Assembly (NCBI GenBank): GCA_043812795.1
Contig: JBDRLU010000068.1
Span: 6,208-70,207, forward strand
Origin: Chloroflexota bacterium
GTDB taxonomy: Bacteria > Chloroflexota > Dehalococcoidia > Dehalococcoidales > UBA2162
Reading direction: 5' to 3'
DNA: 64,000 nt
Below the pieces are notes generated by a model. It was not told where the DNA came from. It made no database searches and was given only the letters and a program-made list of their open reading frames with translations. Position numbers and translations under genes: made by a program. Below are positions 28,711-42,860 of this stretch, piece after piece; the stretch's first letter is position 1, and each line of letters opens with the position of its first letter.

Positions 28711-29526
28711 ATGCTTGTTATTGCGAATAATCTGACCACACGGCGGAGCCTGATTGAACGAATTTTCCGGCAATCGCAGGCGGCGAAGTGGGACTCCGAA
28801 CAGCCGGCCGCCGACAAGCTGAAAGAGACGGCCCGACAGTGTGCTGCGGCGGGTGCCAATCTGCTTGAAATCGATACTCAGCAGCATTTTGACCGACCTG
28901 AAGCCGTGGAATTTGCCGTTAAAGCGGTTCAGCAAGCTACTAACCTGCCATTATGTTTGAGCACGAACAATGTCGAGGCACTGGAAGCCGGACTGCGACT
29001 TTGCCGGCGCCCACCTTTGGTCAATTACGTTTCTATTGACGTGACCAGGATTAAAGAAGTACTGCCGCTTGTAGCTAAATATCAAGCTGAAGTTGTCCTG
29101 CTCGTCAGTGACCCGGCGGCACCGACGGATGCCCGGGAGATGTTGGAGAAAGCAGCTATCCTCATCGGTGCGGCTAACGAAGCCGGAGTCCCCAGCAGCC
29201 GTATCCTCGTTGACCCGGGAATAATCCATATCAGCAAGGATATCGGGCAACGTCACCTGGCTGAGGTGTTTGAGTTTCTCCGTGCTTTATCCGAGGCGAC
29301 CGAACCGCCGGTAAGGAGCACCTGCTGGCTGAGCAATATCTCGGCAGCAGCGCCGCGGCGATTTCATTGGCTTCTCGAAACCTCACTTTTACTTACGCTT
29401 GCCGGAGCCGGTCTTTCTTCTGTTTTTATTGATGTTTTGCAGCGGGAAAACCGGCGCGCCCTTCGCCTGGTCAGGATATTCAATAACGAGCTGGTCTATT
29501 CCGATGGTGAGCTTTCCCTCTCGTAG
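28711..29526 (+). CDS. Divergent pterin-binding (DHPS/MtrH-like TIM barrel) domain protein
   Basis: 271 aa. MLVIANNL..., GANLLEIDT, LCLSTNN, NYVS and VDPGI follow the pterin-binding methyltransferase layout colinear with 15969-16766, but the sequence is much diverged. Confidence 0.5.
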   Translation: MLVIANNLTTRRSLIERIFRQSQAAKWDSEQPAADKLKETARQCAAAGANLLEIDTQQHFDRPEAVEFAVKAVQQATNLPLCLSTNNVEALEAGLRLCRRPPLVNYVSIDVTRIKEVLPLVAKYQAEVVLLVSDPAAPTDAREMLEKAAILIGAANEAGVPSSRILVDPGIIHISKDIGQRHLAEVFEFLRALSEATEPPVRSTCWLSNISAAAPRRFHWLLETSLLLTLAGAGLSSVFIDVLQRENRRALRLVRIFNNELVYSDGELSLS

Positions 29527-29724: not shown

Positions 29725-29940
29725 ATGGCTATGAAAGTAAGAATCGACCGGGAACTATGTATCGGACTGAGCAACTGTGTGGTGATTGCCCCTACCGTCT
29801 TCAAGCTCGATGCCGAGAATAAAGCTATTATTCTCGACCCGTCTTCCGTTAATGAAGAGAAACTAACGGAGGCGGCGGAAAGCTGCACCCAGAATGCCAT
29901 CATTATCGAAGACGATGAGGGTAATCAGCTATATCCCTGA
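29725..29940 (+). CDS. Small ferredoxin with only three cluster Cys (probable [3Fe-4S] type)
   Basis: 71 aa. It reads DRELCIGLSNCVVIAP...AAESCTQNAI. The usual CxxCxxC is CxxLxxC here and the distal Cys lacks the following Pro. Confidence 0.6.
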   Translation: MAMKVRIDRELCIGLSNCVVIAPTVFKLDAENKAIILDPSSVNEEKLTEAAESCTQNAIIIEDDEGNQLYP

Positions 29941-30001
29941 TGCTGATAACCTTGGCCAGTCCGGCTCAATAATATCGAATCATAAGGAAGGAGGTTAAGC
30001 T

Positions 30002-30484
30002 ATGGCCGAAAAGGAAAAGATGGCTATCGTTGTTTTCAGCGGCGAGCTGGACCGTGCCCTCGCCGCCTTTATTTTAGCGACGACCGGTGCCAGTATGGGA
30101 ATGGAAGTCAGTATGTTCTTCACCTTCTGGGGGCTAAATATCATTCAGAAGAATGAAGGTAGTATTAAGAGCCAAGGGTTGATGAGAAAGATGTTCAACT
30201 GGATGAACCGGGGTGGCTCTAGAAGGCTAAAACTTTCCCAGTTCAATATGCTTGGTCTCGGCCCCTGGATGATAGGGAGACTGATGAAAGAAATGAAGAT
30301 GCCGTCTATCGATGAGTTTATTGATATGGCCCATCAGATGGGAGTGAAGCTTATTGCCTGTACGACTTCCTGTGGCATAATGGGAGTGCCTGAGGAAGCT
30401 TTCCGAGCTGAAGTTAGCAGCCTCGCCGGTGCGGCTTATTTTTTGAACGAGGCCCGTCAGGCCAAAGTGACACTTTTTATCTAG
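30002..30484 (+). CDS. DsrE/DsrF-like (COG2210) sulfur-relay family protein
   Basis: 160 aa. KMAIVVFSGELDRALAAFILATTGASMGMEVSMFFTFWGL and the C-terminal LIACTTSCGIMG follow the DsrE-like fold pattern. Confidence 0.65.
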   Translation: MAEKEKMAIVVFSGELDRALAAFILATTGASMGMEVSMFFTFWGLNIIQKNEGSIKSQGLMRKMFNWMNRGGSRRLKLSQFNMLGLGPWMIGRLMKEMKMPSIDEFIDMAHQMGVKLIACTTSCGIMGVPEEAFRAEVSSLAGAAYFLNEARQAKVTLFI

Positions 30485-30509
30485 GTTCAGTGGGCAGAAG
30501 GAGATAGAG

Positions 30510-30743
30510 ATGAAAGCTGATGATTCACTCGACTGTGTAGGTTTATATTGTCCGATGCCGATTGTAAAGACGGCGCAAAAAATCAAGCAACTCAAAACCG
30601 GGCAGGTACTCGAAGTGCTGGCGGATGACGTGGGTATCAAACAGGACATGCCGGCCTGGTGTCAGGCTACGGGACACGAGTTTCTTGGCGTAGAAGAAGG
30701 CGGCAAAGAAATAAAAGTCTATGTGAAAAAGACCCACGATTAA
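30510..30743 (+). CDS. tusA: TusA/SirA-family sulfurtransferase
   Basis: 77 aa. It has the LDCVGLYCPMPIVK (CPxP) active-site motif and LEVLADD. Confidence 0.85.
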   Translation: MKADDSLDCVGLYCPMPIVKTAQKIKQLKTGQVLEVLADDVGIKQDMPAWCQATGHEFLGVEEGGKEIKVYVKKTHD

Positions 30744-30782
30744 GTTCTATTCGTTTTCTGCCTGGCTTTTCCTTAAAGTACG

Positions 30783-30890
30783 ACCTCACCCCTGCCCCTC
30801 TCCTAAAAGGAGAGGGGAATTTTGAATAAGAGGGCGGAGCCCTCTTCTGTCAACTCCTTAAAATTGTCATTCCAGCGAAAGCTGGAATCC
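30783..30890. repeat. Mosaic intergenic element, three hairpin modules
   Basis: Module 1 is ACCTCACCCC..CCCCTCTCC-TAAAA-GGAGAGGGG (9-bp perfect stem). Module 2 is AAGAGGGC-GGA-GCCCTCTT. Module 3 is TGTCATTCCAGC-GAAA-GCTGGAATCC. The element is colinear with 43823-43912. Confidence 0.7.
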
Positions 30891-30912
30891 ATTGGCAAGA
30901 TCTGCACGTATT

Positions 30913-31746
30913 CTAGAATTGCTCGATAAACCGGGCAATCTGGTCGAAGGTAAAGACCGGGCCGTCTTTGCAGATATATTTCTCACCGACGTTACAGCGG
31001 GCACACTTGCCCAGTCCGCACTTCATTTTGCCTTCGAGCGTGGTAACAATCTGATTGCTGGTGAAGCCAAGTGTCTTCAATTCGGTGAGAACGAACTTTA
31101 TCATTATCGGCGGCCCACAGGTGATGGCCATGGCGTTTTCCGGAGATAGTTTTAGTTCCTTCACCACCGCCGGTATCAGGGCTACCCGTCCCGTCCATTC
31201 CTCGTCACCACGATCCACGGTGAGTTCCAGGCGTGTTTTCGGCGAGCTCGACCAGGTGTCGAACTCATTGGCAAAGACTAGGTCTTGCGGAGTGCGGGCA
31301 CCATTGATAATAGTGAGCTGGCCGTAGCCGTCCCGGCGGTCGATGATGGTATTGATTACCGGACGCAGGGGCGCCATACCGATACCACCGCCGATGATAT
31401 AGATATTTTTCCCTTTATAGTCGTCCAGAGGAAAATAGTTACCGAAAGGGCCTCTGACTCCTACCCGGGCGCCGGCCTCGAGGTCGTGTAGGGCGCTGGT
31501 GACAGTGCCGATACGTCTGACGGCAAACTCCAGGGGTCCCTTGCGGCCGGCTACCGAGGTAATACCGAAGGGAGCTTCACCCACACCGAAAGCAGAGAGA
31601 AAAGCGAACTGTCCGGGACGGTAATCTATTTTCTCAACAACCGCCGGGTCTTCCAGCCTGACGCTCATGAGCTTGATATCCGGCGTCAGGTCGGTTACGT
31701 TCTCCAGCGTTCCCAGATAAGGAAGAAAAGGACTATCGGACGGCAT
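30913..31746 (-). CDS. FAD/NAD(P)-binding oxidoreductase with C-terminal [2Fe-2S] (FlxA / AsrB / HydG-like)
   Basis: 277 aa. It has RPGQFAF, a GGGIGMAP dinucleotide motif and C-terminal CGLGKCARC. Confidence 0.75.
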   Translation of the reverse strand: MPSDSPFLPYLGTLENVTDLTPDIKLMSVRLEDPAVVEKIDYRPGQFAFLSAFGVGEAPFGITSVAGRKGPLEFAVRRIGTVTSALHDLEAGARVGVRGPFGNYFPLDDYKGKNIYIIGGGIGMAPLRPVINTIIDRRDGYGQLTIINGARTPQDLVFANEFDTWSSSPKTRLELTVDRGDEEWTGRVALIPAVVKELKLSPENAMAITCGPPIMIKFVLTELKTLGFTSNQIVTTLEGKMKCGLGKCARCNVGEKYICKDGPVFTFDQIARFIEQF

Positions 31747-32731
31747 TGCTGGCTCCTATCTTCTGTACTTCGGTAATAACTTCCCGTATATCAATATTCA
31801 CCGGACAGTGCTTCACGCAGCGACCGCAGCCAGTACAACCGGTCACCGCGAAGTTTTCCGGCATGTAAAGCAGCTTGTGATAGAAACGCTGGCGGAGCCT
31901 GGCCCCTTTGGTCGGGCGGGGGTCATAGCCACCGGCAATGCGGGTGAACCCGGCGGACTGGCAGCTTTCCCAGGTACGCAGCCGTTCTATCTTACCGTGA
32001 ACTGTATCATCCCGGATATCGAAGCAATAGCACACCGGGCAAACATAGGAACATAAATTACAGTGCAGGCAGCGGTCGGCGAGGCGGTTCCAGTAAGGGG
32101 ACTCGAAGACCCGTCTCATCGTTTCACTGATGGCTTTGGTGGAGACCCGGGTTGGTAAGGGAGGCGCTGCCACCGTTACCGGTTCGTCCTTTGCCCCTTT
32201 GACCAGAGCGAGTAGGGCCTTGCCCTTCTCGGTCGTTGTTTTGACGGAATATGAATCACCGGCTGGGGTCAACAGGATATCGACATGGGAAGCGTCGTCG
32301 GGGGCAGTGCCCAGGCTGGTACAGAAACACTCCGGGGAAGCCTTGGTACAGGCAAGTCCGATAAGGACCGTAGCCTCCCGGTGCTGCCGGTAATTAACGT
32401 CAGCCGGTGTGTCCAGGAAAGGCTTGTCCAGTACCGCCAGTCCCAAGGCATCGCAAGGGCGGATACCGAAAATAATCGATTTTTCTTTGACTTCCGTGCC
32501 GACAAGCGCGGCATTGTCTCCATTTTCCATGGTAAAAAGTGTTTCGGTGGCTGGGAAAAACCATTCCTTAGGAGAGAGAGTTGTATTGGCGAAGTCGAGG
32601 ATAATATCCTCTACGTTGTTAGTCACACTAAAAAGGGTGAGGCCGTTGACCTGTAATGGTGCGATAAGCCGGTGCGTTTTGGCCAGTTGTCCCAGCCAGG
32701 CCAGTAAGGCGCTCTTAGTCAGGACTAACAT
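31733..32731 (-). CDS. Fe-S protein, FlxB / AsrA / sulfhydrogenase-beta-like
   Basis: 332 aa. It has CLHCNLCSYVCPVCYC and CTGCGRCVKHCP, and overlaps the downstream gene by 14 nt. Confidence 0.7.
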   Translation of the reverse strand: MLVLTKSALLAWLGQLAKTHRLIAPLQVNGLTLFSVTNNVEDIILDFANTTLSPKEWFFPATETLFTMENGDNAALVGTEVKEKSIIFGIRPCDALGLAVLDKPFLDTPADVNYRQHREATVLIGLACTKASPECFCTSLGTAPDDASHVDILLTPAGDSYSVKTTTEKGKALLALVKGAKDEPVTVAAPPLPTRVSTKAISETMRRVFESPYWNRLADRCLHCNLCSYVCPVCYCFDIRDDTVHGKIERLRTWESCQSAGFTRIAGGYDPRPTKGARLRQRFYHKLLYMPENFAVTGCTGCGRCVKHCPVNIDIREVITEVQKIGASNAVR

Positions 32732-33582
32732 CAGTCGCCACCCCCCAGCTTTTCATCCTTTTTGAAGGTGGCGAAAGGCGGTACTTCGGTGGCATTTAAG
32801 CCAGCCTGGAAGCCGAACTGTTCCCGGACTTCCTTTTCCAGTTTCTGATTGAGCCGGCTGAGCGGGACACCGATCGGGCAGACCCGCTGGCATTCCTCGC
32901 AGCCGGAGCAGCGACCGGCCAGATGGAAAGCCCGGATAATGTGCCAGATTTCGTTTTCGGCGGGGGCAATCTTGATACCAACCCAGAGCGGGTCGAGCTG
33001 CTCGACGAAACATTCCGGACAATAGCAGGCGGGACATACCTGGCGGCAGGCATAACAGCGCAGGCAACGCGAGAAATGTTCCGCCCAGAAAGCCCGCCTT
33101 TGTTCCGTACTCTTGGCTTCGATTTCAGCCACGTCGGTATAGGCAGGGGCTAGTGCTGGCTCTTCTTTTGCCTCACCGATGAGAAAGTCATAGACTACCG
33201 GCGTATGCTGGAGGCAGTCGCAGCAGCGGGTCGGCTGTTTTTCACTGCGGTGGTACCAACTGCTTTCCACCATTCCCGGACAGACCACGCCGATGATAAA
33301 AACCTGGTCACGCTGGATTTGGTTCTCGTTGAGGAGTAGATTGATAGCCCGCGAGTCACAGCCTTTGACAACAATGCCGGTTGGCTTGCCTTTCCTATCC
33401 AGTAAATACTTAACTAGGTTATGCACGCAGGTCTCGTCGAAAATAAGTCTATCGGTCTCGGCCGGTTCATAGGCAAAGAACGGCCGGGCGGTGATTCCAT
33501 CGCTGGCCCTCTCGTAGCCGATGACGCACTCTACCTTCTTGCTGGTCAGCAGTTCTCTGGCTTTGTCTCGTATCAGTTGCAC
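32731..33582 (-). CDS. Fe-S protein, FlxC-like
   Basis: 283 aa. It has CLRCYACRQVCPACYCPEC and CSGCEECQRVCP. The TGATG junction links it to the next gene. Confidence 0.65.
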   Translation of the reverse strand: MQLIRDKARELLTSKKVECVIGYERASDGITARPFFAYEPAETDRLIFDETCVHNLVKYLLDRKGKPTGIVVKGCDSRAINLLLNENQIQRDQVFIIGVVCPGMVESSWYHRSEKQPTRCCDCLQHTPVVYDFLIGEAKEEPALAPAYTDVAEIEAKSTEQRRAFWAEHFSRCLRCYACRQVCPACYCPECFVEQLDPLWVGIKIAPAENEIWHIIRAFHLAGRCSGCEECQRVCPIGVPLSRLNQKLEKEVREQFGFQAGLNATEVPPFATFKKDEKLGGGD

Positions 33583-34005
33583 CTACTTGCCTCTTTCCGC
33601 CGGTTGCCTTGGCCCCAAATCGATAAGCTGCTGGGTAAAGGAAGCGACCACTTCCGAGAACCTCTTGCCCTCTGCCGCCGAGACCCATTCGATGCGAAGA
33701 CGTTCCGGCTGAATGCCCAGGTAGTCGAGGAGAGGCTTGAGCAAAGCAAAGCGACGGCGGGTATGATAGTTGCCCTCGACGTAGTGACAATCGCCGGGGT
33801 GACAGCCGGCGACCAGAATACCGTCGGCGCCCTGTTGAAAACTTTTGACGATGAAAAGCGGGTCAACCCGCGCCGAGCAGGGCACACGGATAATACGGAT
33901 GTGGGGTGGGTAGGCGATACGGCTGGTACCGGCCATATCCGCACCCGCGTAGCTGCACCAGTTACACAGGAAGCCGACGATGCGGGGCTGGAAGGCTACC
34001 GCCAT
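33583..34005 (-). CDS. mvhD: MvhD/FlxD-type (methyl-viologen-reducing hydrogenase delta-like) protein
   Basis: 140 aa. IVGFLCNWCSYAGADMAG...IRVPCSARV...GADGILVAGCHPGDCHY is the MvhD signature. Confidence 0.85.
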   Translation of the reverse strand: MAVAFQPRIVGFLCNWCSYAGADMAGTSRIAYPPHIRIIRVPCSARVDPLFIVKSFQQGADGILVAGCHPGDCHYVEGNYHTRRRFALLKPLLDYLGIQPERLRIEWVSAAEGKRFSEVVASFTQQLIDLGPRQPAERGK

Positions 34006-37000
34006 AAACTCATCACCTCGGAGAGCAACTGCTGGTTGGTAAAGCCGCGCAGGTTAATCGCTTTGGTACGGCAGGTGGCGTTACACAGGCCACAGCCTTT
34101 GCACAGGCTCTCGTTGACCACAGCCACCGTCTGGCCATCGCGCAGTACCTGAGTATCAATCGCTTTGAAGGGACAGACCTGGGTGCAAAGCAGACAGCCG
34201 CTGCAAAGCTCCGGCCTGACCGCGCATACCACGGCTTCGGCGCTGGCTGAAGCTTTGACGAGTATCGTTGCTGCCCGGGAAGCGGCCGCCTGGGCTTGAA
34301 CGATACATTCCTCGATAGACTTCGGACTGTGGGCCAGGCCGCACATGAAAATACCGTCGGTGACAAAGTCCACGGGGCGGAGCTTCATGTGGGCTTCCAG
34401 GAAGAAACCGTCCTCATTCAGCGGTACTTTGAGGAGCTGGGATAGTTCTTTGTTAGTATTGGGGGGAACAGTCGCTGAGCTTAGAGCGATGAGGTCTGCA
34501 TCCAGCATCAGACGCTGGCCTAACGTTGGGTCGGTGACAATGACCTTCAGAACGGATTGACCATTCTGCTGGACTGTTTGGACATCGGGCTTATCGTCCA
34601 CATCATAGCGGATGAAATTGACTCCCTGCTCGGCAGCAGCGCGATAGTAGTCTTCCTTGAACCCGTAAGTCCTCATATCCCGGTAGAGAACATAAATTTC
34701 CATTTGCGGGTTTATCTCTTTCAGCTTCAAAGCGTTCTTAACGGCCTGGCTGCAGCATACCCGGCTGCAATACTGCCTCTCGTTATCCCTGGAGCCGACG
34801 CACTGAATCATGACCAGATTCTGGCATTTGTTCACCCGCTCACTGGTATTGGCTATCTCCGCCTCCAGTTCAAGCGAAGTTAATACCCTGGGGTCATGGC
34901 CGTATAAATATTCGGTAGGTTTGAGTTCCTCGGCACCGGTAGCCACGATAGTCACGCCGTGGGCTATCTCTTGTTCTGACTGTTCAGGTCCGCTCGTCAG
35001 GCGGGTAGTGAAATTACCGACGTAACCAGTGAATTGAGTAATACTGGCTTCGGTATAAACCTTAATCAAGGGATTCTCTCGGGCTTGACGGATGATTTCT
35101 TGGAGGTAATCCTGCACATCCCCTCCCTCCGCCGTATAGTGGATTCTACCGGCCATCCCGCCCAGCTGTTTTGTCTTCTCTACCAGATGGACTTCAAATC
35201 CCTGGTTAGCCAGCGAGAGAGCGCTGACCATCCCGGCAACACCGCCGCCAATGACCAGCGCGGCGCGGGTTATGTTGTAGGATAATGGGTAGAGCGGCCT
35301 GAGGAGTCTGGCTTTGGTGACGGCTATTCGTATCAGGTCTTGTGCCTTGGTAGTGGCGGCCTCAGCCTCGGCCCGGTGTACCCAAGCACACTGCTCGCGG
35401 ATATTAGCCATCTCGAATAAGTAAGGGTTCAGCCCGGCCTCTTTCAAGGCCTCTCTGAATACGGGTTCATGCGTCCGTGGCGTACAGGCGGCCACCACCA
35501 CGCGGTTTAATCTTTTCTCCTTAATCGTTTCGCCGATGTGAGTGATGGAATCAACGGAACAACTGAAAGTAGTATCCTCGGCGTGGATGACACCATGAAG
35601 ACTACGGGCATATTCCACGACACTGCCAATATCCACGACACTGGCGATGTTCGTCCCGCAGTGGCAGACGAAGACACCCACCCTCGGTGGCTCTCTGGAG
35701 ACATCTCGTTCCGGCGGGTATTCCTTCTCCGCGATGAGTGTCCCTCGTTCGTCGGAGAGGAGTTGTGCCGCCAGTGAGGCGGCACCGCTGGCCATGGTGA
35801 CCGAATCCGGAATATCCATCGGTGCGCGGAATACTCCGCAGGCATAGATTCCCGACCGCGAGGTCGCCACCGGCGAAAAAATAGAATTACCGCAGAAACC
35901 GGAGGGAGTCGTTTCAATAAATAACTTATCGGCGAGTTGTCGGGAACTGACCGGCGAGGTCAGGCCGACGGACAGGACCACAAGGTCGAACTCTTCGTCC
36001 GTTACTCCGGTACCATCGAGGCGGTGCCTGACCACCACATTTTTGGTATCCGGTGTTTCGCCTAGAATTGACACTTTGCTCCAGACGAACTGGACGCCCG
36101 GAGTGTTTTGGGCCCGCTCGTAATACCGTTCGAAACCTTTACCATAAGCCCGGATGTCGTTGTGAAAGACGACCGCCTCAAGCCGAGAATCGTGTTCCTT
36201 GGAGAGAATCACCTGCTTGATGGCGTACATGCAGCATACCGCCGAACAATAGGTATTACCGGCGGTCGTGTCCCGGGAACCGACGCACTGAATCCAGGCT
36301 ATCTTCTTCGGATGCTTTCTATCCGAGGGACGCAATAGCTCTCCGCCGTACGGTCCTGAAGCACTCAGGATACGTTCGAATTCAAGGCTGGTAATGACAT
36401 TGCTTAACCTGTGATAGCCGTACTGGCTCTGTACTTGCGGCTCGAACGTTTCATAGCCTGGGGCCAGGATGACACTGCCAACCTCGACGTCCAGTTTCTT
36501 CTCCTGCTGGTGGAAATCAATGGCTTTATTGGCACAGACCGGCACGCAAATCTGGCACTCTTTCCTTAAGAGAAAGAGACAGTGGGCCGGGTCAACCACA
36601 CGGGCGGCCGGGACTGCCTGTGGAAAATGGGCATGAATATTTTTCACGCTCGCCAAATCTTCATTATAATTATCGGCGATTTTTACCGGACAGTACTCGG
36701 CACAGGTGCCGCAGCCGGTGCACTTATCGATATCGACGTAGCGCGGCTCCTGAAGCAGGGTCACTTTGAAATTCCCCGCCTCGCCGGTAATGCCATCAAC
36801 CTGAGCGCCCGTGATGATGGAAATATTGGGGTTTCGCGAGCATTCGATAAATTTGGGTGATAAGATACACATGGAGCAGTCGTTGGTAGGAAAAGTCTTG
36901 TCCAGTTGGGCCATTTTGCCGCCGATGGAGGGTAGCTTCTCGACCAGATAGACCTTGAAGCCGGAATTAGCCAGGTCGAGGGCAGCCTGGATACCGCTGA

Positions 37001-37082
37001 CACCCGCTCCCACCACCATGACCGCCCCTACTTTGCCATTGTTCGTATTGGGAGTTTGATTTTCGTTGTTACCTATGGGCAT
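33996..37082 (-). CDS. hdrA: HdrA-like flavoprotein, tandem (double TrxR-fold) form, 1028 aa
   Basis: Two Rossmann motifs are present (VVGAGVSGIQAALDLA near the N-terminus; VIGGGVAGMVSALSLA around residue 610). There are two QCVGSRD..C..CC motifs, an internal canonical HdrA N-domain (VGVFVCHCGTNIA), an inserted ferredoxin (CTGCGTCAEYCP/CQICVPVC) and a C-terminal ferredoxin (CSGCLLCTQVCP/CKGCGLCNATC). Confidence 0.85.
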   Translation of the reverse strand: MPIGNNENQTPNTNNGKVGAVMVVGAGVSGIQAALDLANSGFKVYLVEKLPSIGGKMAQLDKTFPTNDCSMCILSPKFIECSRNPNISIITGAQVDGITGEAGNFKVTLLQEPRYVDIDKCTGCGTCAEYCPVKIADNYNEDLASVKNIHAHFPQAVPAARVVDPAHCLFLLRKECQICVPVCANKAIDFHQQEKKLDVEVGSVILAPGYETFEPQVQSQYGYHRLSNVITSLEFERILSASGPYGGELLRPSDRKHPKKIAWIQCVGSRDTTAGNTYCSAVCCMYAIKQVILSKEHDSRLEAVVFHNDIRAYGKGFERYYERAQNTPGVQFVWSKVSILGETPDTKNVVVRHRLDGTGVTDEEFDLVVLSVGLTSPVSSRQLADKLFIETTPSGFCGNSIFSPVATSRSGIYACGVFRAPMDIPDSVTMASGAASLAAQLLSDERGTLIAEKEYPPERDVSREPPRVGVFVCHCGTNIASVVDIGSVVEYARSLHGVIHAEDTTFSCSVDSITHIGETIKEKRLNRVVVAACTPRTHEPVFREALKEAGLNPYLFEMANIREQCAWVHRAEAEAATTKAQDLIRIAVTKARLLRPLYPLSYNITRAALVIGGGVAGMVSALSLANQGFEVHLVEKTKQLGGMAGRIHYTAEGGDVQDYLQEIIRQARENPLIKVYTEASITQFTGYVGNFTTRLTSGPEQSEQEIAHGVTIVATGAEELKPTEYLYGHDPRVLTSLELEAEIANTSERVNKCQNLVMIQCVGSRDNERQYCSRVCCSQAVKNALKLKEINPQMEIYVLYRDMRTYGFKEDYYRAAAEQGVNFIRYDVDDKPDVQTVQQNGQSVLKVIVTDPTLGQRLMLDADLIALSSATVPPNTNKELSQLLKVPLNEDGFFLEAHMKLRPVDFVTDGIFMCGLAHSPKSIEECIVQAQAAASRAATILVKASASAEAVVCAVRPELCSGCLLCTQVCPFKAIDTQVLRDGQTVAVVNESLCKGCGLCNATCRTKAINLRGFTNQQLLSEVMSLWR

Positions 37083-37125
37083 TGTTGTTATCTTTCTTGC
37101 TGGGCTACCAATAGATTGTGCCTGA

Positions 37126-38268
37126 CTACATGGCCTCCTCGACCAGTTCCGAAATATCTTTAATTTGCAGAACGTCGGCCTTATTGGCCGTCAGCACACT
37201 ATCCTTGAAATTGACGACGCAGTACGGGCAGGCCGTCGCCAGAATATCGGCACCCCGCTCAATTGCCTGCTGTACCAGAATATCGGCGAAGCGCTCGCCC
37301 TTCTTTGTTTCCATCCAGATGCGGCCGGCCCCGCCGCCGCAGCACAGGCTTTCGGCGCGGGAAGCCGCCTCGTCCATTAACTCAAGACCAGGAATGGCAG
37401 CCAGCACCCGGCGTGGTTCGTCATAGATGCCGTTGTGCCGTCCGAGATAACACGGGTCATGGTAGATGACTTTCTTATTCAGGTCTTTAGTGAATTTTAG
37501 CTTGTCTTCATCAAGCAGTTGCGCCAGATATTGGGTAAAATGAATAACCTTGAAGTTGCCGCCGAGTTTAGGATAATCGTTCTTAAAAGTGGTATAGCAG
37601 TGCGGCGAGCTAACCATGATTTCTTTTACTCCGCTTTCAGCGAGGACGTCGATATTGCTTTTCGCTAGTTGCTCGAAGAGGCCTTCGTTGCCGGCCTTAC
37701 GCACGCTCTCGCCACAACAACTTTCCTTACTGCCCAGAATGCCGAAGTTCTCCCCTATTTTTTGCAGGATACTGGCGGTTGCTTGCGCGATGCTTCGGGC
37801 GTTGGGGTCGTAGGCGGTGGTGCAGCAGGTAAAATATAGGAGGCCGATGCCCTGAGCGAAGGGCTTGATGTCGAGGTCTTCCACCCAATCGGTGCGGTGC
37901 TCGCGGGGCTCGCCCGTCGGGTTGCCGACGCTACCCAGGCTGGCCATGACGCTGCGGAGACTGGCTGGGACCATGCGGTTTTCGACCATGATGGCCCGCG
38001 CCGCCCGCATGATATCGGTGATGCCGACGCCGCGGGGACAACGGCTCATGCAGTGATGGCACGTGGTGCAGAGCCACCAGGCTTCTTCCTCAAGGTCGAA
38101 TAAGCCGAACTGTGTCTGGCGCACCATCTTATGCGGGAGAAAAGTCCGCACGGCATTCCACGGACAGGTGGCCGTACACAGGCCACATTGGAAGCACGGC
38201 AAAAGTTTCTCACCGATGGCTTCCTTCATCATGTCGGCGGCTTCTTTAAACGGCGCTACTGTTTCCAA
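37126..38268 (-). CDS. HdrC-HdrB fusion / HdrD-like soluble CCG-domain Fe-S protein (BamD-like)
   Basis: 380 aa with a TTG start. It has CFQCGLCTATCP and CTTCHHCMSRCP, then two CCG motifs (ESCCGES, SLCCGGGAG) plus HDPCYLGRH and CPYC. Confidence 0.8.
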   Translation of the reverse strand: METVAPFKEAADMMKEAIGEKLLPCFQCGLCTATCPWNAVRTFLPHKMVRQTQFGLFDLEEEAWWLCTTCHHCMSRCPRGVGITDIMRAARAIMVENRMVPASLRSVMASLGSVGNPTGEPREHRTDWVEDLDIKPFAQGIGLLYFTCCTTAYDPNARSIAQATASILQKIGENFGILGSKESCCGESVRKAGNEGLFEQLAKSNIDVLAESGVKEIMVSSPHCYTTFKNDYPKLGGNFKVIHFTQYLAQLLDEDKLKFTKDLNKKVIYHDPCYLGRHNGIYDEPRRVLAAIPGLELMDEAASRAESLCCGGGAGRIWMETKKGERFADILVQQAIERGADILATACPYCVVNFKDSVLTANKADVLQIKDISELVEEAM

Positions 38269-38284
38269 AATGACAATCCTCTTT

Positions 38285-38306
38285 CTGATAGCTGGCAGCT
38301 AATAGC
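38285..38306. repeat. AGCTGAY heptamer array inside the operon
   Basis: ctgatagctggcagctaatagc lies in the 45-nt gap between the MoaD-like and HdrD-like genes. Confidence 0.55.
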
Positions 38307-38313
38307 TTTATCT

Positions 38314-38586
38314 TTAGCCTCCCTCGAAGATAGATATTATGTCAAGTATGTCCCCGTCTTCGACCGGCTGATAGATTTCGGTGGAGGTAGCCATGTCGCC
38401 ATTCAGGAAGATGGCGAAATCGCTGCTGAATTTGCCCTCTTTATCGAAAAAGCTTTGCCGTGCATTAGGGTATAACTTCAAGAATTCATCAAGGCACTGG
38501 CCGATGGTCTTTCCCTTTACCTCGGCGTCATTCGACAGATTGGGTAGCGGCGAGATGTAACCATGAAAACAGACCTTTACGCTCAC
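38314..38586 (-). CDS. MoaD/ThiS-like ubiquitin-fold protein ending in Gly-Gly
   Basis: 90 aa. GTG start in a GTGA overlap with the upstream stop. The C-terminus is ...VEDGDILDIISIFEGG. Confidence 0.65.
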   Translation of the reverse strand: MSVKVCFHGYISPLPNLSNDAEVKGKTIGQCLDEFLKLYPNARQSFFDKEGKFSSDFAIFLNGDMATSTEIYQPVEDGDILDIISIFEGG

Positions 38587-38972
38587 TTCTCAGCCTCGTT
38601 TTCATCCTCGACGAGTGTCAGTGTGCCACAAAAACAGACTTTGACGCACTGGGGGTCGGCGGGCTCCCCGCAAAAATCACACTTCAAGGGAATCTCCGTA
38701 TCCGGCTCCTTAAAAATACCCTTGGCCGGGCAGGAAGCCCGACAGAAAATACAGGCATCAACTTGCTGCCCGTCAACGACGACGATATGTTTGGAATTGC
38801 ACGAGGCTTCCGTGTACGGCCCGGCGATGACCGGAAGAATAAGGTTCCCCTCGCGGAAGACCCGGATGCGCGACCGTTTCGGATTGGCCTCGCCGGTGTG
38901 GTGGAGCGAGCAGACCAGCTCGCAGACACCGCAGGCTGAGCATTTGGAGGGGTCGATTAATATTTTAGGCAT
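38583..38972 (-). CDS. Poly-[4Fe-4S] electron-transfer subunit (AorA/BamC-like)
   Basis: 129 aa. It has CSACGVCELVC, CIFCRASCP and CDFCGEP..C..C motifs, and starts 13 nt after the AOR stop. Confidence 0.75.
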   Translation of the reverse strand: MPKILIDPSKCSACGVCELVCSLHHTGEANPKRSRIRVFREGNLILPVIAGPYTEASCNSKHIVVVDGQQVDACIFCRASCPAKGIFKEPDTEIPLKCDFCGEPADPQCVKVCFCGTLTLVEDENEAEK

Positions 38973-38985
38973 AGTTCACTCCCCG

Positions 38986-40803
38986 TCAGAGCAGTCCCAG
39001 TTCAGCCAATTTTTGCGCGTCGGGTACGCCATTAATATCCCACCCCCGCAGCCGGTAAAATTCGGGTAGCATCACGTGAAGCTCGTTTACCTGTCCCTTG
39101 GCCGGGCCGTCCGGCATCGGTTCTTCAAGCATCCGCGGCGGGAGGTTATCGTCGTGGCTGGTTATCCCCGCCTTCAGGTTGAACAGCCGCTCCAGGTTCC
39201 AGATTCTTTCCCCGGCCTGGATTAGAGTATCGGTATCGTAGCCGGCGCCGGTGATGGTTTCGAGCATGGGCAACATGCTATCCGGCTTACCCGGCGCCTC
39301 GGGGCGGGAGGTACGGAAGCAAAGGCCGGCAGAGTCAACCGCTGCCGTGCGGTCCTGCAGCCACTTGATGATGGCTGGTTTACCCTCGATGGCAAAGGGG
39401 TCGGCCATCTCGGAGCGGAGGGAGCTGGCGCGGCAGTGGCAGCCGCCCCGGTTCGAAGTGGCATACCCTAAACCCATCCCCTTCAACGCCCGCGGGTCGT
39501 AACCGGCAAAGCCCTGCTTCTTCGTGCCCATGAATAGCTCGGGGTGGCCGTATTTTTCGGCGGCAGCATAGCCGCCATCGGCCAGTATATCACCCAGGCC
39601 CTGCCGCAGGCCGGTCATCGTTACCAGTTTGACCATCGCTTCGGCATTACCGAATTCGAGATTGAGTCCGGCTTCTTTTTCGGACAAAAAACCACGGTCG
39701 TAAAGCTCCATGACACAGGAGACGGCCGTGCCCATCGACATGGTATCCACTCCCAGTTCGTCGCAGATATAGCTGGCCTTGGCGATGGCCGGGAGACTGG
39801 TCACGCCGCAATTGGAACCGAAGAGACAGATGGTTTCGAATTCCGGCCCCTCGCCCTCCCCCTCGAAGCCGGCCGCGCCGACTTTCGTCCACCGGCCGCA
39901 GGCTACCGGACAGGCAAAGCAGGAGACCTTCCGTTTCAAAATAGTATCCCGCAGCGCCTCCCCATTAATCTTAGCGGCCTCGGTAAAGAGGCCGCCCTGG
40001 AAATTCTTAATCGGTATCATGCCCTTGGCCGTGACGGTATTGACCGTCCGTGCCGAGCCCTGGTGGGGGTACGAGTTGGGACTTTCCAGGCTGGTCTCGG
40101 GCGATTTTCTGAATACTTCTAAAAGGTTGTTCACTGCCTCCCGGAAGGCAGTCGTATCGGCGATAGTGATGGATTTTGTGCCCCTCACGGTGATAGCCTT
40201 CAGGTTCTTAGCCCCCATCACCGCCCCCACGCCCGACCGCCCCGCTGCCCGGTGCCGGTCGTTGATGATGGCGGCAATGTTCGATAGTTTTTCCCCGGCC
40301 GGCCCGATGCAGGCGATACTCGTTTCGCGCGCCTTCCAGTAGTCGCCGATTTCGGTCCGAATCATGTCCTCGGTCTCGCCGGTGGCCTTACCCCACAGGT
40401 GGCGGGCGGGCCGGATATCCACGATATTATTGACAATGGACAAATAGACCGGCTCTTCGGCGCGGCCTTCGATGATGACGGCATCGTAGCCGGCGAACTT
40501 TAGCTGGGAGCCGAAAGCACCGCCCGAGTTGGAGCAGGCAATGACGCCGGTGAGCGGCGACTTGGTGACGACCATATAACGGCTGCCGCCGAGGGCAACA
40601 CCGGTGGTCGGGCCGGTAGCGAAGATGAGTTTATTTTTCTCACTCAAGGGGTCGACAGTGGGGTCGACTTCATCGTAGAGGATTTTGGTGCCCAGCCCCC
40701 GCCCCCCGATATACAGTCTGGCTACATTGGCGTCGAGGGATTGTTCCGTACAGACACGTGTGGTCAGATTTACCCGCAGAATCTTGCCGACCCAGCCGTA
40801 CAA
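38986..40803 (-). CDS. aor: Aldehyde:ferredoxin oxidoreductase-family tungsto/molybdopterin subunit
   Basis: 605 aa. The N-terminus is MYGWVGKILRVNLT...GGRGLGTKILYDEVDPTVDPLS...VVTKSPLTG...SNSGGAFGSQLKFAGYDAVIIEG. The cluster motif is CFACPVAC and the pterin motifs are CDELGVDT and VDSAGLC. Confidence 0.9.
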   Translation of the reverse strand: MYGWVGKILRVNLTTRVCTEQSLDANVARLYIGGRGLGTKILYDEVDPTVDPLSEKNKLIFATGPTTGVALGGSRYMVVTKSPLTGVIACSNSGGAFGSQLKFAGYDAVIIEGRAEEPVYLSIVNNIVDIRPARHLWGKATGETEDMIRTEIGDYWKARETSIACIGPAGEKLSNIAAIINDRHRAAGRSGVGAVMGAKNLKAITVRGTKSITIADTTAFREAVNNLLEVFRKSPETSLESPNSYPHQGSARTVNTVTAKGMIPIKNFQGGLFTEAAKINGEALRDTILKRKVSCFACPVACGRWTKVGAAGFEGEGEGPEFETICLFGSNCGVTSLPAIAKASYICDELGVDTMSMGTAVSCVMELYDRGFLSEKEAGLNLEFGNAEAMVKLVTMTGLRQGLGDILADGGYAAAEKYGHPELFMGTKKQGFAGYDPRALKGMGLGYATSNRGGCHCRASSLRSEMADPFAIEGKPAIIKWLQDRTAAVDSAGLCFRTSRPEAPGKPDSMLPMLETITGAGYDTDTLIQAGERIWNLERLFNLKAGITSHDDNLPPRMLEEPMPDGPAKGQVNELHVMLPEFYRLRGWDINGVPDAQKLAELGLL

Positions 40804-40878
40804 TGTCCCGCTACTCCTCAGTCCTGGTTAAAACCGTTCCCATTGTATGCGAGACACGGATAATATGTCAATAAAAAT

Positions 40879-40950
40879 AGCTGATAGCTGTCAGTACTCA
40901 GCAAATAGCAAAAAATTTCGAGAAGCTGAAAGCTGTATGCTGATAGCTAC
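40879..40950. repeat. Two AGCTGAY heptamer arrays upstream of the AOR operon
   Basis: agctgatagctgtcagtactcagc lies at 40879-40902 and gctgaaagctgtatgctgatagctac at 40925-40950. Confidence 0.55.
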
Positions 40951-41032
40951 TAGATGGAACAGGAGTACTTTGGTCTTTTCCCATCTCTTGTGCTAACCTT
41001 TTACCGGTACTGATTGAACGTGGGAGGATTAC

Positions 41033-41422
41033 ATGGATAATTCTATTCAAAGAGGCAGGCAAACAGGCCAGAAGATATGGGGCAAGGCCAAGTTCCAGAA
41101 GACGGAGAAGTACCTGGGGAATTTGGACCCATACCTGCGGGATATGGCACTGCTTTCCTGGAGCAATTTTGCCCGGCCGGTCCTCGACCTCAAAACGAGA
41201 AGCCTTTGTATGGTAGCCGCCCTGGCGATAACAGGACGAGCGGAGTTGAGGACACATACCTTCGGCGCTCTCAATAACGGTGCCACCCCGGAAGAAATAA
41301 GGGAAGTAATCAGGCAGATGCTGCCTTACGCCGGACTCGCCAATGCCATCGATGCCTTTGCCATCGCCAATAAAGCCATCGCCGAGCACCAGCCCATCAG
41401 CGATAGACCGAAGACTTCTTAG
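41033..41422 (+). CDS. Carboxymuconolactone decarboxylase (AhpD-like) family protein
   Basis: 129 aa. LDLKTRSLCMVAALAITGRAELRTHTFGALNNGATPEEIREVIRQMLPYAG is the CMD-domain pattern. Confidence 0.75.
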   Translation: MDNSIQRGRQTGQKIWGKAKFQKTEKYLGNLDPYLRDMALLSWSNFARPVLDLKTRSLCMVAALAITGRAELRTHTFGALNNGATPEEIREVIRQMLPYAGLANAIDAFAIANKAIAEHQPISDRPKTS

Positions 41423-41438
41423 TTTTGAAAAGAGGATT

Positions 41439-41513
41439 TGGAGCGGGAGACGGGGCTCGAACCCGCGACAACCTGCTTGGAAGGCAGGCACTCTACCACT
41501 GAGTTACTCCCGC
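41439..41513 (-). tRNA. tRNA-Gly (anticodon TCC), CCA encoded
   Basis: The reverse complement is GCGGGAG-TA-ACTC..GAGT-G-CCTGC-CTTCCAA-GCAGG-..GCGGG-TTCGAGC-CCCGT-CTCCCGC-T-CCA. Confidence 0.9.
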
Positions 41514-41635
41514 ACGGCTGACCCACACCAAAATTCTACGGCAAAACGGACGGAAAGGCAAGGTGTGTGTTTGACACCCACTACTGCGAGGACTACAATC
41601 CTGCCAGAAGACGTCTGATATTGAGATGGTGAAGG

Positions 41636-41719: not shown

Positions 41720-41842
41720 GATTAACTGCCATATATTACTACTCTGCCACACCGTCTATTGCTGGGGATAGAATCACTCAATATTAAGAGAGGATAAAAG
41801 GGGTAAGGCAGAAAAGACCAAGATGAAGAGGGAGCTGAAAAG

Positions 41843-42271
41843 ATGAACACCCAAAATATTTATATTAACATCTTAAGTGAAAATTGGCGTCATATGAGAC
41901 ATCAAGAGACTCAGCGGATGTGGATTGCAAACGTATTTGTGGCACTCGTTGTAGGGGTATCGGCTTATTTAGGTAAAGTTGAATTAGAGGAACTTTCTTG
42001 GTTTGTTCCTCTCGCTTTTCTTATCATTTCTGTGCTTTGCCTTCTAATCACCCTAAAATTGAACCACATTTTTGGAGTAACTAAAGATGCTATTAGTGAT
42101 ATCTTCGAAGACAAGAAGATACTTTTAGAGGACAATTGGGGAAAATACGTCGGAGGTCTCAAATCAAAAGGGAAATGGGAACACCTAAAAGTAAGGTGTT
42201 TATATGTCATTCTTTATTCAATAGCTATAGTAATATCGCTAATACTCTTAGTGTTGACTTTGACTAACTAG
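41843..42271 (+). CDS. Hypothetical three-TM membrane protein
   Basis: 142 aa, AT-rich, with no recognised family. Confidence 0.5.
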   Translation: MNTQNIYINILSENWRHMRHQETQRMWIANVFVALVVGVSAYLGKVELEELSWFVPLAFLIISVLCLLITLKLNHIFGVTKDAISDIFEDKKILLEDNWGKYVGGLKSKGKWEHLKVRCLYVILYSIAIVISLILLVLTLTN

Positions 42272-42495
42272 AAGGAGTTCAAGGTGCTATAGAAGAATAC
42301 GAGTGCGTTCAAGTAGGTCATCACAAGAAGGTTGCAGAAGTTATACGGGAATACTTGATGAATGGCTGGCATCTCCATACGTATCAAGCCACAGGTCAAG
42401 GAGCAGTGGTCACGCATTACCTGCTATTTGAAAGAGGATAGCTATCAGGACTAACCCTGTAGTATCATTATCTACCGAAAGGGGGAAAGAGTAAT

Positions 42496-42828
42496 ATGGC
42501 AAAATGGCTTTTAGTGGTAGAGACCAGATGTAACGATGCGGCCCGCGAGGCCGAGTTCTGCGAGTGGTATGATAAAACGCACATTCCCGATATTTTTGAG
42601 ACTCCGGGCTTTGTCAGGGCGACACGGTACGAAAATACCGAACCGTCGGAAGGTAAGGGGAAGTTTTTCACCACATACGAAATAGAGACCGACGACATCG
42701 ACGCGCTCCTGAAGAGACATCAAGAAAATATGAGCAAGAAAAGAGCCGCAGGACGGTTCAGCGAGTTACTGGTAGTGGTGTCACGCGGCTTCTATAAACA
42801 GCTAAGTTCCGTAACCAATAAGAAGTAA
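42496..42828 (+). CDS. Hypothetical 110-aa protein, possibly dimeric alpha/beta-barrel (EthD/DUF4286-like)
   Basis: The pattern resembles WLLVVETRCNDAAREAEFCEWYDKTHIPDIFETPGFVRATRY. This is a weak family call. Confidence 0.45.
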   Translation: MAKWLLVVETRCNDAAREAEFCEWYDKTHIPDIFETPGFVRATRYENTEPSEGKGKFFTTYEIETDDIDALLKRHQENMSKKRAAGRFSELLVVVSRGFYKQLSSVTNKK

Positions 42829-42860
42829 CTAGTGCCTCCGGATAAGCACGTCTGATAATC

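Follow-up and report, generated by a model that had tools for sequence, protein, structure and literature searches.

The stretch of DNA described here, which we call the window, spans 64 kb of a contig from a Chloroflexota bacterium (JBDRLU010000068.1) and carries nine consecutive minus-strand open reading frames (ORFs) at positions 30913-40803, confirmed by the ORF listing of the whole window. They begin with a tungsten-pterin aldehyde:ferredoxin oxidoreductase (AOR) and continue with proteins resembling the bifurcation core of class II benzoyl-CoA reductase (BCRII, encoded by bam genes) and with an Flx-type NAD(P)H module. The original prediction had listed nine co-directional ORFs with their junctions and domain labels; every coordinate and junction was reproduced, and the labels match the Pfam and NCBIfam profile scans from which we took the domain content. 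In the direction of transcription, the features of the locus are:

40842-40871, minus strand: promoter-like site TTGACA-18 nt-TACAAT, 11/12 consensus matches, about 39 nt before the start codon of the AOR gene
38986-40803, minus strand: tungsten-pterin catalytic subunit, AOR sensu stricto (WorL), 605 aa; Pfam AFOR_N 270 bits and AFOR_C 447 bits
38583-38972, minus strand: BamC-type small Fe-S subunit with three [4Fe-4S] clusters, 129 aa, 13 Cys; Fer4 and BamC matches
38314-38586, minus strand: MoaD/ThiS-like protein with C-terminal GG, 90 aa; profile matches below curated cut-offs
37126-38268, minus strand: BamD-like HdrC/HdrB fusion with two cubane clusters and two CCG domains, 380 aa; Pfam Fer4_8 and two CCG
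33996-37082, minus strand: BamE-like fused double HdrA, 1028 aa; HdrA 5odc_A, 672 bits in three stretches
33583-34005, minus strand: MvhD/FlxD-type [2Fe-2S] adaptor, 140 aa; Pfam FlpD 186 bits, MvhD 5odc_D 169 bits over the full length
32731-33582, minus strand: FlxC-like Fe-S connector, 283 aa; Fer4 matches
31733-32731, minus strand: FlxB-like Fe-S protein (AsrA / sulfhydrogenase beta type), 332 aa; Pfam Fer4_22
30913-31746, minus strand: FlxA-like FAD/NAD(P)H/[2Fe-2S] protein (AsrB / sulfhydrogenase gamma type), 277 aa; FAD_binding_6, NAD_binding_1 and DHODB_Fe-S_bind
30795-30845, no strand assigned: pair of GC-rich hairpins, located past the FlxA-like gene and before the convergent TusA gene

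The junctions, computed from the ORF coordinates, are in transcription order a 13-nt gap, a 4-nt GTGA overlap, gaps of 45 and 43 nt, a 10-nt overlap, a 0-nt gap, a 1-nt shared base (TGATG) and a 14-nt overlap. The promoter-like site is the top-scoring minus-strand site in 30400-41600 (by consensus match only), and a GAGGAG ribosome-binding site lies between it and the AOR start codon, which is a TTG. The AOR of the window is not itself among its protein-database matches, the best of which is 70% identical, whereas the aspartyl-tRNA synthetase of the window is there at 100% identity; given the TTG, the source annotation of the AOR gene may use a different start. No terminator-like sites were found in the 45-nt and 43-nt internal gaps, and the hairpins beyond the FlxA-like gene likely mark the end of the transcription unit. 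Upstream, the operon is bounded by a divergent CMD-family gene and a tRNA-Gly gene (41439-41513), and downstream by a convergent ferredoxin-DsrE2-TusA trio (29725-30743, plus strand). Because the junctions are tight, a promoter-like site precedes only the AOR gene, the gaps hold no terminators and hairpins follow the last gene, these consensus-based signals fit a single operon of nine genes.

The catalytic subunit had been predicted to be a canonical AOR rather than the more divergent BamB, the tungsten subunit of BCRII, and its PDB scores, active-site residues and tree placement all agree with this. Among PDB sequences, it scored highest with 9mqx_D (630 bits), followed by 1aor (567), 9g7j (560) and 8c0z (519), with weaker scores for WOR83 (340), FOR (307), WOR5 (229) and BamB 4z3w (204). 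Chain D of 9MQX is the large subunit of the bifurcating enzyme AmWOR1 (entry identity from PMC12318220). The CFACPVAC and DSAGLC motifs are present and align with the cluster ligands Cys288/291/295/494 of Pyrococcus AOR (PfAOR); together with the 567 bits, this bears out the likeness to the Pyrococcus enzyme suggested in the original prediction. Glu313 and His448 (PfAOR numbering) and the four cluster Cys ligands are kept in the window protein and in its relatives at four other loci (L081, L083, L171 and L087); BamB has Met and Phe at the Glu313 and His448 positions. Moreover, BamB Cys322 is a tungsten ligand conserved in all predicted BamB proteins (PMC12096430), and it has no conserved counterpart in the AOR clade of the window, its position falling in a BamB-specific stretch. 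We considered the Cys in 'ETIC' of the window protein, which would pair with Cys322 in an ungapped reading, and dropped it, as it is absent from L081, L083, L171, L087, L086 and L172.

As a reference we used a bam locus (L089, Citrifermentans bremense, bamA-I) reached via a BamC search. The window AOR is 31-32% identical (177-181 bits) to the BamB of this locus, and BamB paralogues share 64-79% identity with Geobacter metallireducens BamB (PMC5109826). We also built a tree of 277 AOR-family sequences with BamB as the root, by neighbour joining only (NJ; numpy implementation), in which deep nodes are weakly supported. The smallest clade containing all AORs with adjacent Hdr genes (Hdr-linked AORs) also includes PfAOR and the large subunit of AmWOR1, so that the placement against BamB proposed earlier as a check puts the 605-aa subunit outside BamB and inside the AOR clade. 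In the 64-kb window, the search for genes of the dienoyl-CoA pathway returned no full-length BamA, just generic crotonases of 264-265 aa with partial matches at 23-33%. By its sequence, then, the catalytic subunit is a true AOR sensu stricto and not a BamB, with predicted aldehyde/acid activity. We rejected a class II BCR variant: the identity to BamB is low, the catalytic residues and the Cys322 position differ, the tree places the protein elsewhere, and BamA and BamGHI are lacking in the window.

The small Fe-S subunit gives a different picture. In the PDB comparison, the 129-aa protein scored 118.5 bits with BamC (4z3w_E), versus 50 bits with AorA and 43 bits with WorS. Its sequence runs colinear with BamC and has a counterpart for every BamC cysteine, but not the fourth-cluster motif CxxCxxCxxxC of AorA and WorS. 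Still, it lies outside the tight BamC group, being 44% identical to the BamC of the reference locus and about 50 aa shorter, whereas the best 120 BamC relatives are all at least 78% identical to G. metallireducens BamC. In every Hdr-linked AOR lineage, the small subunit has 12-13 Cys and is 53-73% identical to that of the window; AORs without Hdr genes have instead a WorS with 16-18 Cys, at 28-37% identity (one at 43%). This strict co-variation of the small subunit with the Hdr genes points to physical coupling.

The gene that follows encodes the 90-aa MoaD-like protein, with matches to TIGR01687 moaD_arch (E=1e-7) and SAMP1 (E=3e-6), both under curated cut-offs, and to ThiS (E=1e-3; orthologues 1e-5 to 3e-2). 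MoaD-like genes are known from aor operons, where their products are absent from the purified enzyme and are regarded as maturation factors (PMC6365974). By analogy, the 90-aa protein is probably a cofactor maturation factor and not a subunit.

Next, we compared the three core proteins with BamD, BamE and BamF of the reference locus, taking residue markers from the 2026 BCRII cryo-EM preprint (10.64898/2026.04.10.717634). The 380-aa protein is 53% identical to BamD over its full length. In BamD, His230, Trp325 and Tyr356 fill the heterodisulfide pocket, and one CCG domain carries a Cys-to-Ser change (10.64898/2026.04.10.717634). The window protein keeps equivalents of the His, Trp and Tyr (SSPHC, GRIWME and CPYC) and, as in BamD, a Ser replaces the first Cys of CxxC in its first CCG domain (SPHC); this mapping uses an inferred numbering offset of +4, and which Cys is replaced is our reading. 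The 1028-aa protein is 55% identical to BamE over 1,013 aa, with 1,011 aligned positions, and keeps BamE Cys59 and Cys62, Lys280 of the bifurcating FAD and Gln768 of the non-bifurcating FAD, as well as 34 of the 40 BamE cysteines, and its bifurcating FAD is predicted to lie in the N-terminal half. The 140-aa MvhD is 51% identical to the N-terminal domain of BamF. It has a Cys where BamF has Sec19 and the length of a typical MvhD, without the C-terminal extension of BamF (about 115 aa). In BCRII, this extension of more than 100 aa docks BamI (10.64898/2026.04.10.717634), so that its absence is consistent with the absence of BamGHI reported below. With identities of 44/53/55/51% to BamC/D/E/F and every testable residue marker kept, the Bam-like order that had been noted (tungsten enzyme, Fe-S protein, HdrD-like, double HdrA, MvhD) holds up at the level of the proteins. 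The HdrD and HdrA proteins are also closer to BamD and BamE (53-55%) than to the HdrD and HdrA of the rearranged AOR-Hdr-Flx lineage described below (40-47%).

The 380-aa protein shows one further feature. In its LYFTCC motif, a second Cys (FTCC) is found in the window clade, L171 and L087, versus FTGC in BamD, L088 and L170. This extra Cys occupies the first ligand position in the CCG domain with the Ser-for-Cys change, and the cluster modified in G. metallireducens BamD might thereby regain a ligand.

The last three genes encode a pyridine-nucleotide module that had been called Flx-type rather than Nuo-type, a call upheld by matches to sulfhydrogenase beta and gamma subunits and by the lack of BamGHI. 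The FlxA-like protein matches P. furiosus sulfhydrogenase gamma (PDB 9nez_C, 209 bits) and the NCBIfam models HydG (212 bits) and AsrB (189), and it is predicted to carry the NAD(P)H site. The FlxB-like protein matches ShyB (171 bits), AsrA (160) and HydB (154), all under the equivalog cut-offs, and PDB 9nez_B (140 bits). The C-terminal 110 aa of the FlxC-like protein match FdhB of the formate dehydrogenase-Hdr (Fdh-Hdr) supercomplexes 8rvu and 7bkb (87-90 bits), which also include MvhD and HdrA, and its orthologues carry FrhB_FdhB_C. In the Flx family, FlxA is a FAD/NAD(P)/[2Fe-2S] protein, FlxB and FlxC are Fe-S proteins related to the Pyrococcus sulfhydrogenase, and FlxD is MvhD (PMC10084766). 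Judged by its domains and this published description, which concerns Desulfovibrio vulgaris, the window module has the full domain set of FlxABCD. In the 64-kb window, no significant match to BamG or BamI was found, BamH matches were short Fe-S motifs only, and Pfam scans of the window proteins detected no 2Fe-2S_thioredx, Complex1_51K or Fer2_4 subunits.

To see how far this arrangement is conserved, we used exact-protein look-ups of metagenomic contigs for the neighbourhoods of close relatives, and an independent set of 160 AOR loci drawn from genomes in GTDB and metagenomes of JGI, in which relatives were at most 54% identical and which served as the negative control set. Two loci (L081 and L082, AOR 64-65% identical) have the whole nine-gene order with unrelated flanking genes, and in a third (L085, 65%) the same order runs until the contig ends. 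Three contigs from different samples (L083/L084 and L173, AOR 70%; L083 1-16360, L173 1-15746) carry a variant without MvhD and Flx genes, in which AOR, BamC-like, an 88-aa ORF, MoaD-like, BamD-like and BamE-like follow one another; in L083 and L173 this block lies after a TRAP DctPQM transporter and before an AMP-forming CoA ligase, an enoyl-CoA hydratase and an SDR. L171 (AOR 55%; 10001-19440) keeps the AOR, BamD-like, double-HdrA and MvhD genes in this order, with a three-cluster subunit of 125 aa encoded right after the AOR. In place of FlxCBA, it then has a single 824-aa protein in which a FrhB_FdhB_C-like domain is fused to a GltD/NfnB-like NAD(P)H domain (Fer4_20 and Pyr_redox_2). The L171 contig also has a second AOR beside a GltD-like protein. 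In a rearranged lineage (L087, L088 and L170, AOR 54-58%), the genes run HdrD, single HdrA, MvhD, FlxC, FlxB, FlxA, AOR and BamC-type subunit. Finally, L086 (AOR 64%) and L172 (55%) have no Hdr genes beside the AOR. One AOR relative, 62% identical, belongs to a cluster annotated as Dehalococcoidales. The aspartyl-tRNA synthetase of the window is 72-76% identical to its best matches, and the few of these with names are labelled Dehalococcoidales, Chloroflexi or 'subsurface metagenome'; both proteins thus point to an uncultured member of the Chloroflexota, probably of the class Dehalococcoidia.

Across the 160-locus sample and the look-up loci, AORs at least 55% identical to that of the window are Hdr-linked in 7/8 loci, and those at 45-55% identity in 0/69 (also in 0/14 with more than 6 kb on both sides). 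In the NJ tree, the Hdr-linked AORs are split into three or more lineages, with ordinary AORs branching between them. Clade A contains 14 sequences (5/5 with known context Hdr-linked; bootstrap 33/100), clade B has 39 (3/3 with known context Hdr-linked; bootstrap 100/100), and L171 forms the third group. Clades A and B thus comprise 53 sequences, with neighbourhood data from eight related loci and 44 sequences without them. Gene order, subunit identities, residue markers and the conserved modular synteny can be read directly from these loci. In terms of sequence, the nine-gene arrangement is more than chance, because L081 and L082 repeat the full order between unrelated flanking genes and the variants contain the partner set in rearranged or module-swapped form. 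The constant element in these loci is the AOR with a BamC-type subunit, a BamD-like protein and an HdrA/BamE-like protein, and the pyridine-nucleotide module is exchangeable. As the association survives both rearrangement and module swapping, functional coupling is strongly supported.

Adjacency of tungsten oxidoreductases (WORs) and Hdr genes was also observed farther away. Distant WORs (33-35% identical; L058 1-11890, also L038, L051, L059 and L078; Desulfobaccales, Syntrophobacter and Desulfomonile) sit 3' of a different Hdr set, composed of HdrC, HdrB, a 1,122-aa HdrA-GltD fusion ('HdrL'-like), MvhD, a [NiFe] hydrogenase small-subunit-like protein and a 437-aa ORF without Pfam match, after which come a WorS with four clusters and then the WOR itself. 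On a contig from Bathyarchaeota (L032), the order is HdrA-MvhD-AOR-FeS. Judged by gene content, WOR-Hdr adjacency therefore recurs in several clades with different wiring.

We favour, with moderate confidence, the interpretation that the operon encodes one soluble multi-subunit tungsten enzyme, formed by the AOR, the Bam-type core and the Flx module, plus a MoaD-like maturation factor. Here the AOR would be hard-wired to an HdrA-type bifurcation core (BamD-like, BamE-like and MvhD) through the BamC-type three-cluster subunit, and the Flx-type module (FlxA/B/C-like) would stand where the NuoEFG/HydABC-like BamGHI sits in BCRII. From the parallels with BCRII we infer the physical assembly, the path and direction of the electrons, the substrates and the identity of the third partner. 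In BCRII, the NAD-side module is the electron input, via the MvhD-like BamF, to the bifurcating FAD of BamE; the tungsten subunit lies on the low-potential branch (inserted ferredoxin domain, BamC), and BamD is the high-potential exit to an electron-transferring flavoprotein (ETF) (preprint 10.64898/2026.04.10.717634).

Transferred to the window, our model suggests that NAD(P)H (about -320 mV) would be oxidised at the FAD of the FlxA-like protein as the mid-potential donor. Its electrons would run through the FlxB/FlxC-like clusters to the [2Fe-2S] cluster of MvhD and on to the bifurcating FAD of the BamE-like protein, in its N-terminal half. From there, the low-potential electron would take the inserted ferredoxin domain and the BamC-like clusters to the tungsten-pterin site of the AOR, and the high-potential electron would leave via the BamD-like subunit to a putative acceptor (ETF-like, quinone-linked or a protein thiol). 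The carboxylate/aldehyde couple has a textbook potential of about -580 mV. The acceptor would consequently need a potential of at least 2(-320) - (-580) = -60 mV under standard conditions, a limit that would be less strict at low cellular aldehyde-to-acid ratios. An ETF or a quinone-linked carrier would fit, and the ETF BamOP has a potential of +16 mV (10.64898/2026.04.10.717634). In the forward direction, the net equation would read 2 NAD(P)H + acid + acceptor(ox) -> aldehyde + 2 NAD(P)+ + acceptor(red). The enzyme should also run in reverse: aldehyde and a reduced high-potential carrier would yield NAD(P)H, with the surplus energy of aldehyde oxidation lifting ETF-level electrons. The Flx-less variants (L083 and L173) would take electrons from another donor, possibly ferredoxin.

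The original prediction had offered two functions for such a machine. Driving carboxylate reduction fits the BCRII topology; confurcating aldehyde and NAD(P)H electrons onto ferredoxin does not. Because, by homology with BCRII, NAD(P)H would be the mid-potential donor and the BamD-like subunit the high-potential exit, ferredoxin is unlikely as the third partner. We consider it improbable that ferredoxin enters the wiring in either of the ways that can be drawn, that is, as the acceptor of confurcated aldehyde and NAD(P)H electrons or, as in the Bam model before 2026, as the donor with NAD(P)+ as the high-potential acceptor. The mean of the two potentials, (-580 + -320)/2 or about -450 mV, is near ferredoxin, most HdrA systems reduce ferredoxin, a gene for a 71-aa ferredoxin lies 1 kb downstream (29725-29940), and the Flx-less L083 and L173 need a non-Flx donor, which may be ferredoxin. 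However, that gene is not conserved at the related loci, and the markers matching the BCRII topology (NAD-side input, tungsten subunit on the low-potential branch, BamD on the high-potential one) are kept here; with NAD(P)H as the input, ferredoxin cannot be the high-potential acceptor.

Several points weigh against a single bifurcating complex. L086 shows that a close AOR relative (64% identical) can exist without Hdr genes, the Hdr-linked AORs are not monophyletic in the NJ tree, with clade A at the bootstrap value given above, and no gene for an ETF or another evident high-potential partner was found in the 64-kb window. Genes for an ETF and an acyl-CoA dehydrogenase lie 7-10 kb off in L081 only, too weak a link for us to retain ETF as an encoded partner. 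The mechanistic template is itself a preprint, and NAD(P)H without the reduced-ferredoxin co-input of BamGH may or may not reach the potential of the AOR. In addition, Desulfovibrio Flx-Hdr works free-standing beside an alcohol dehydrogenase gene (PMC10084766), so that adjacency need not mean a physical complex.

This last point leads to the reading that the operon encodes two separate enzymes, a ferredoxin-using class II-type AOR (WorL with its small subunit) and an independent Flx-Hdr NAD(P)H:acceptor/ferredoxin oxidoreductase, co-regulated for alcohol/aldehyde metabolism. We regard this as unlikely, although it accounts for several of the observations. In D. vulgaris, the stand-alone Flx-Hdr is linked to adh1 and needed for ethanol oxidation, and the AOR is separate (PMC10084766). 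In the window, the HdrD-like gene has the two longest gaps of the operon on either side (45 and 43 nt), and the 45-nt gap holds a copy of the operator-like motif described below; the Hdr-Flx block precedes the AOR gene in clade B, and L086 has its AOR without Hdr. On the other hand, the BamC-type small subunit occurs only where Hdr genes are present, and in BCRII it is BamC that occupies the ferredoxin-domain exit of BamE (10.64898/2026.04.10.717634). The closer kinship of HdrD and HdrA with BamD/E (53-55%) than with other AOR-linked Hdr proteins and the retained pocket-blocking residues of BamD also argue for one enzyme, as does the AOR-BamC-BamD-BamE core, which stays whole where Flx is absent or replaced (L083, L173 and L171).

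As for the substrates of the proposed single enzyme, the neighbourhoods hint at acid/aldehyde pairs tied to acyl-CoA metabolism, with the TRAP carboxylate transporter and the CoA ligase-enoyl-CoA hydratase-SDR genes in L083 and L173, CoA transferases in L085, and 2-oxoacid oxidoreductases and an aminotransferase in the window. In L087, a fused EutB+EutC ethanolamine ammonia-lyase, an acetaldehyde source, is encoded at 13615-15879, 1.3 kb downstream of the rearranged locus, which hints at aldehyde oxidation as the physiological direction there.

Such neighbours could also be expected of a divergent class II aryl-/acyl-CoA reductase, whose tungsten subunit would reduce a CoA thioester and not aldehydes or acids. 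Its partners would be BamCDEF-like, as they are here; a CoA ligase, an enoyl-CoA hydratase and an SDR lie downstream and a TRAP transporter upstream in L083/L173, L085 is preceded by CoA transferases and a MaoC dehydratase, and the window has crotonase/beta-oxidation genes at 43988-44782 and 49011-52486. Nevertheless, we judge this reading very improbable. The tungsten subunit shares only 31-32% identity with BamB versus 630 bits with the AmWOR1 large subunit, it keeps Glu313/His448, its clade has no conserved Cys322 counterpart, the BamC-like protein is at 44% where the best 120 BamC relatives are at 78% or more, and no full-length BamA or Oah is encoded in the 64-kb window.

We then compared the single-enzyme model with the known systems. 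BCRII of G. metallireducens, Bam[(BC)2DEFGHI]2, has the same order of tungsten subunit, three-cluster Fe-S protein, HdrD-like, double HdrA and MvhD-like proteins. In contrast to BCRII, the window has an AOR as the catalytic subunit (32% to BamB), an inserted MoaD-like gene, a short MvhD with Cys for Sec19, an Flx-type module in place of BamGHI, and hence probably no confurcating input of reduced ferredoxin and NADH, and no bamA/dch/had/oah genes near the operon. FlxABCD-HdrABC of D. vulgaris has, by domain description, the same module types, and both systems are genetically linked to alcohol/aldehyde metabolism (PMC10084766). There, however, HdrB and HdrC are not fused as in the BamD-like protein of the window, HdrA is not a fused dimer, and the gene order is the reverse of that found here (hdr, then flxDCBA). 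The window attaches an AOR and a BamC-type subunit where Flx-Hdr is thought to reduce free ferredoxin, and its BamD-type pocket residues argue against a DsrC or heterodisulfide substrate.

The class IV WORs AmWOR1/ElWOR1 (WorLSABC; 9MQX) are the closest solved relatives of the catalytic subunit, and likewise couple an AOR-clade enzyme to NAD(P) via a bifurcation module. The window module is HdrA-type, not BfuABC/HydABC-type, with no WorA/B/C-type genes in the operon; its small subunit has three clusters, whereas WorS has four and forms nanowires, and its third substrate is probably a high-potential one and not ferredoxin. AorABC of Aromatoleum aromaticum (class III WOR, 8C0Z) also pairs an AOR-clade subunit (519 bits) with a small Fe-S protein and with a flavoprotein linked to NAD, and its operon includes MoaD-like genes. 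Unlike the small subunit of the window, with which it scores 50 bits, AorA carries four clusters; AorC is a simple FAD subunit, and AorABC works without Hdr or bifurcation. With the methanogen HdrABC-MvhAGD and Fdh-Hdr complexes, the window shares HdrA (672 bits), MvhD (169), the FdhB-type connector (90) and the bifurcating-FAD logic, but it has no hydrogenase or formate dehydrogenase; its HdrBC equivalent is BamD-like with a blocked pocket, and its low-potential branch would end in a tungsten enzyme, not in free ferredoxin.

The original prediction had held that the locus matches neither described complex, Bam or Flx-Hdr, and in the open-access literature and bioRxiv we found no description of an AOR + Hdr + Flx combination. 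The sole trace is in the genome paper of D. autotrophicum, where an hdr locus shown in Fig. 4 includes 'Aor5' and an Fe-S protein without comment (PMC2702500). The 2026 WOR classification restricts bifurcating class IV enzymes to WorLS+WorABC (Bfu type) or to GmBCR in clades 62/63 (PMC13328260), and tungsten-enzyme papers of 2019 and 2025 give extra subunits only for bacterial AORs, XOR and BCR (PMC6365974, PMC12096430). The BCRII preprint discusses BamD homologues solely within BCRs (10.64898/2026.04.10.717634). In work on Chloroflexi from the subsurface, we found Hdr-IFO, Hdr-Fdh and class I BCR described, but no AOR-Hdr-Flx cluster. Measured against this literature, what is new is a BCRII-type Hdr bifurcation core on an AOR with an Flx-type input.

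Several other features of the window were recorded. The motif CAGCTATCAG, with one mismatch allowed, has 15 copies in the window versus 3.2 expected, a number reached in 0/100 shuffles. It is mostly intergenic, often as two or three adjacent AGCT(A/G)TCAGC-like units (40881-40890, 40926-40949, 38285-38294, 6987-6996, 1570-1579, 44985-45001, 42439-42448 and 24004-24013). Three copies are just upstream of the promoter-like site of the AOR gene and one is inside the 45-nt gap between the MoaD-like and HdrD-like genes. The motif could be a transcription-factor operator or a small dispersed repeat.

The trio convergent with the operon encodes, in a tight array, a single-cluster ferredoxin (71 aa), a DsrE2-family protein (160 aa) and a TusA (77 aa). 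DsrE2/TusA-type sulfur-trafficking proteins accompany Hdr-like systems elsewhere. We rejected the trio as a thiol partner of the HdrD-like subunit, since it has no homologues in 172 related loci and the BamD-type pocket disfavours disulfide chemistry, and we treat its adjacency as incidental. Between the tRNA-Gly gene and a tRNA-Pro gene (43704-43777), a low-GC stretch at 41800-43700 (0.43 vs about 0.53) holds small ORFs with no Pfam match or just DUF4286 and looks like a small inserted island; other GC dips are at 1-2000 (with a NERD-domain gene) and 12001-14000. A corrinoid methyltransferase-like set at 13720-16766 comprises a Met_synt_B12 activation domain and B12-binding, homocysteine S-methyltransferase-like and pterin-binding proteins, with a second pterin-binding/CdhD-like gene close to the operon (28711-29526). 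A multihaem cytochrome c and a cytochrome b are encoded at 17301-19198. The remainder of the window holds housekeeping genes, two 2-oxoacid:ferredoxin oxidoreductase sets, an aminotransferase and beta-oxidation genes.

Acid-to-aldehyde reduction is among the most demanding redox steps in biology. To our knowledge, the known routes use ATP (carboxylic acid reductases) or very reduced ferredoxin (free AOR), or run in the oxidative direction only. We tentatively suggest, as a possibility short of an even chance, that the operon represents a third architectural class of bifurcating tungsten oxidoreductase. Such an enzyme would use NAD(P)H, and no ATP, to reduce carboxylic acids or, in reverse, would use aldehydes to raise electrons from the level of ETF or quinones to NAD(P)H. 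Its BamCDEF core would have been transplanted onto an AOR, with an interchangeable Flx module, GltD module or none, and it would occur in sediment and other environmental metagenomes, including Dehalococcoidia-related Chloroflexota. If this is true, an AOR driven by NAD(P)H through bifurcation would be a new route for acid reduction, with use in acid-to-alcohol biocatalysis, and the few known HdrA-type bifurcating systems would gain a member. The Bam core, which has so far been associated with the reduction of aromatic rings, would then be a portable 'low-potential booster' with swappable input modules, in line with the modular principle proposed in the BCRII preprint (10.64898/2026.04.10.717634). 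It would also provide a concrete handle on the energy metabolism of uncultured Chloroflexota.

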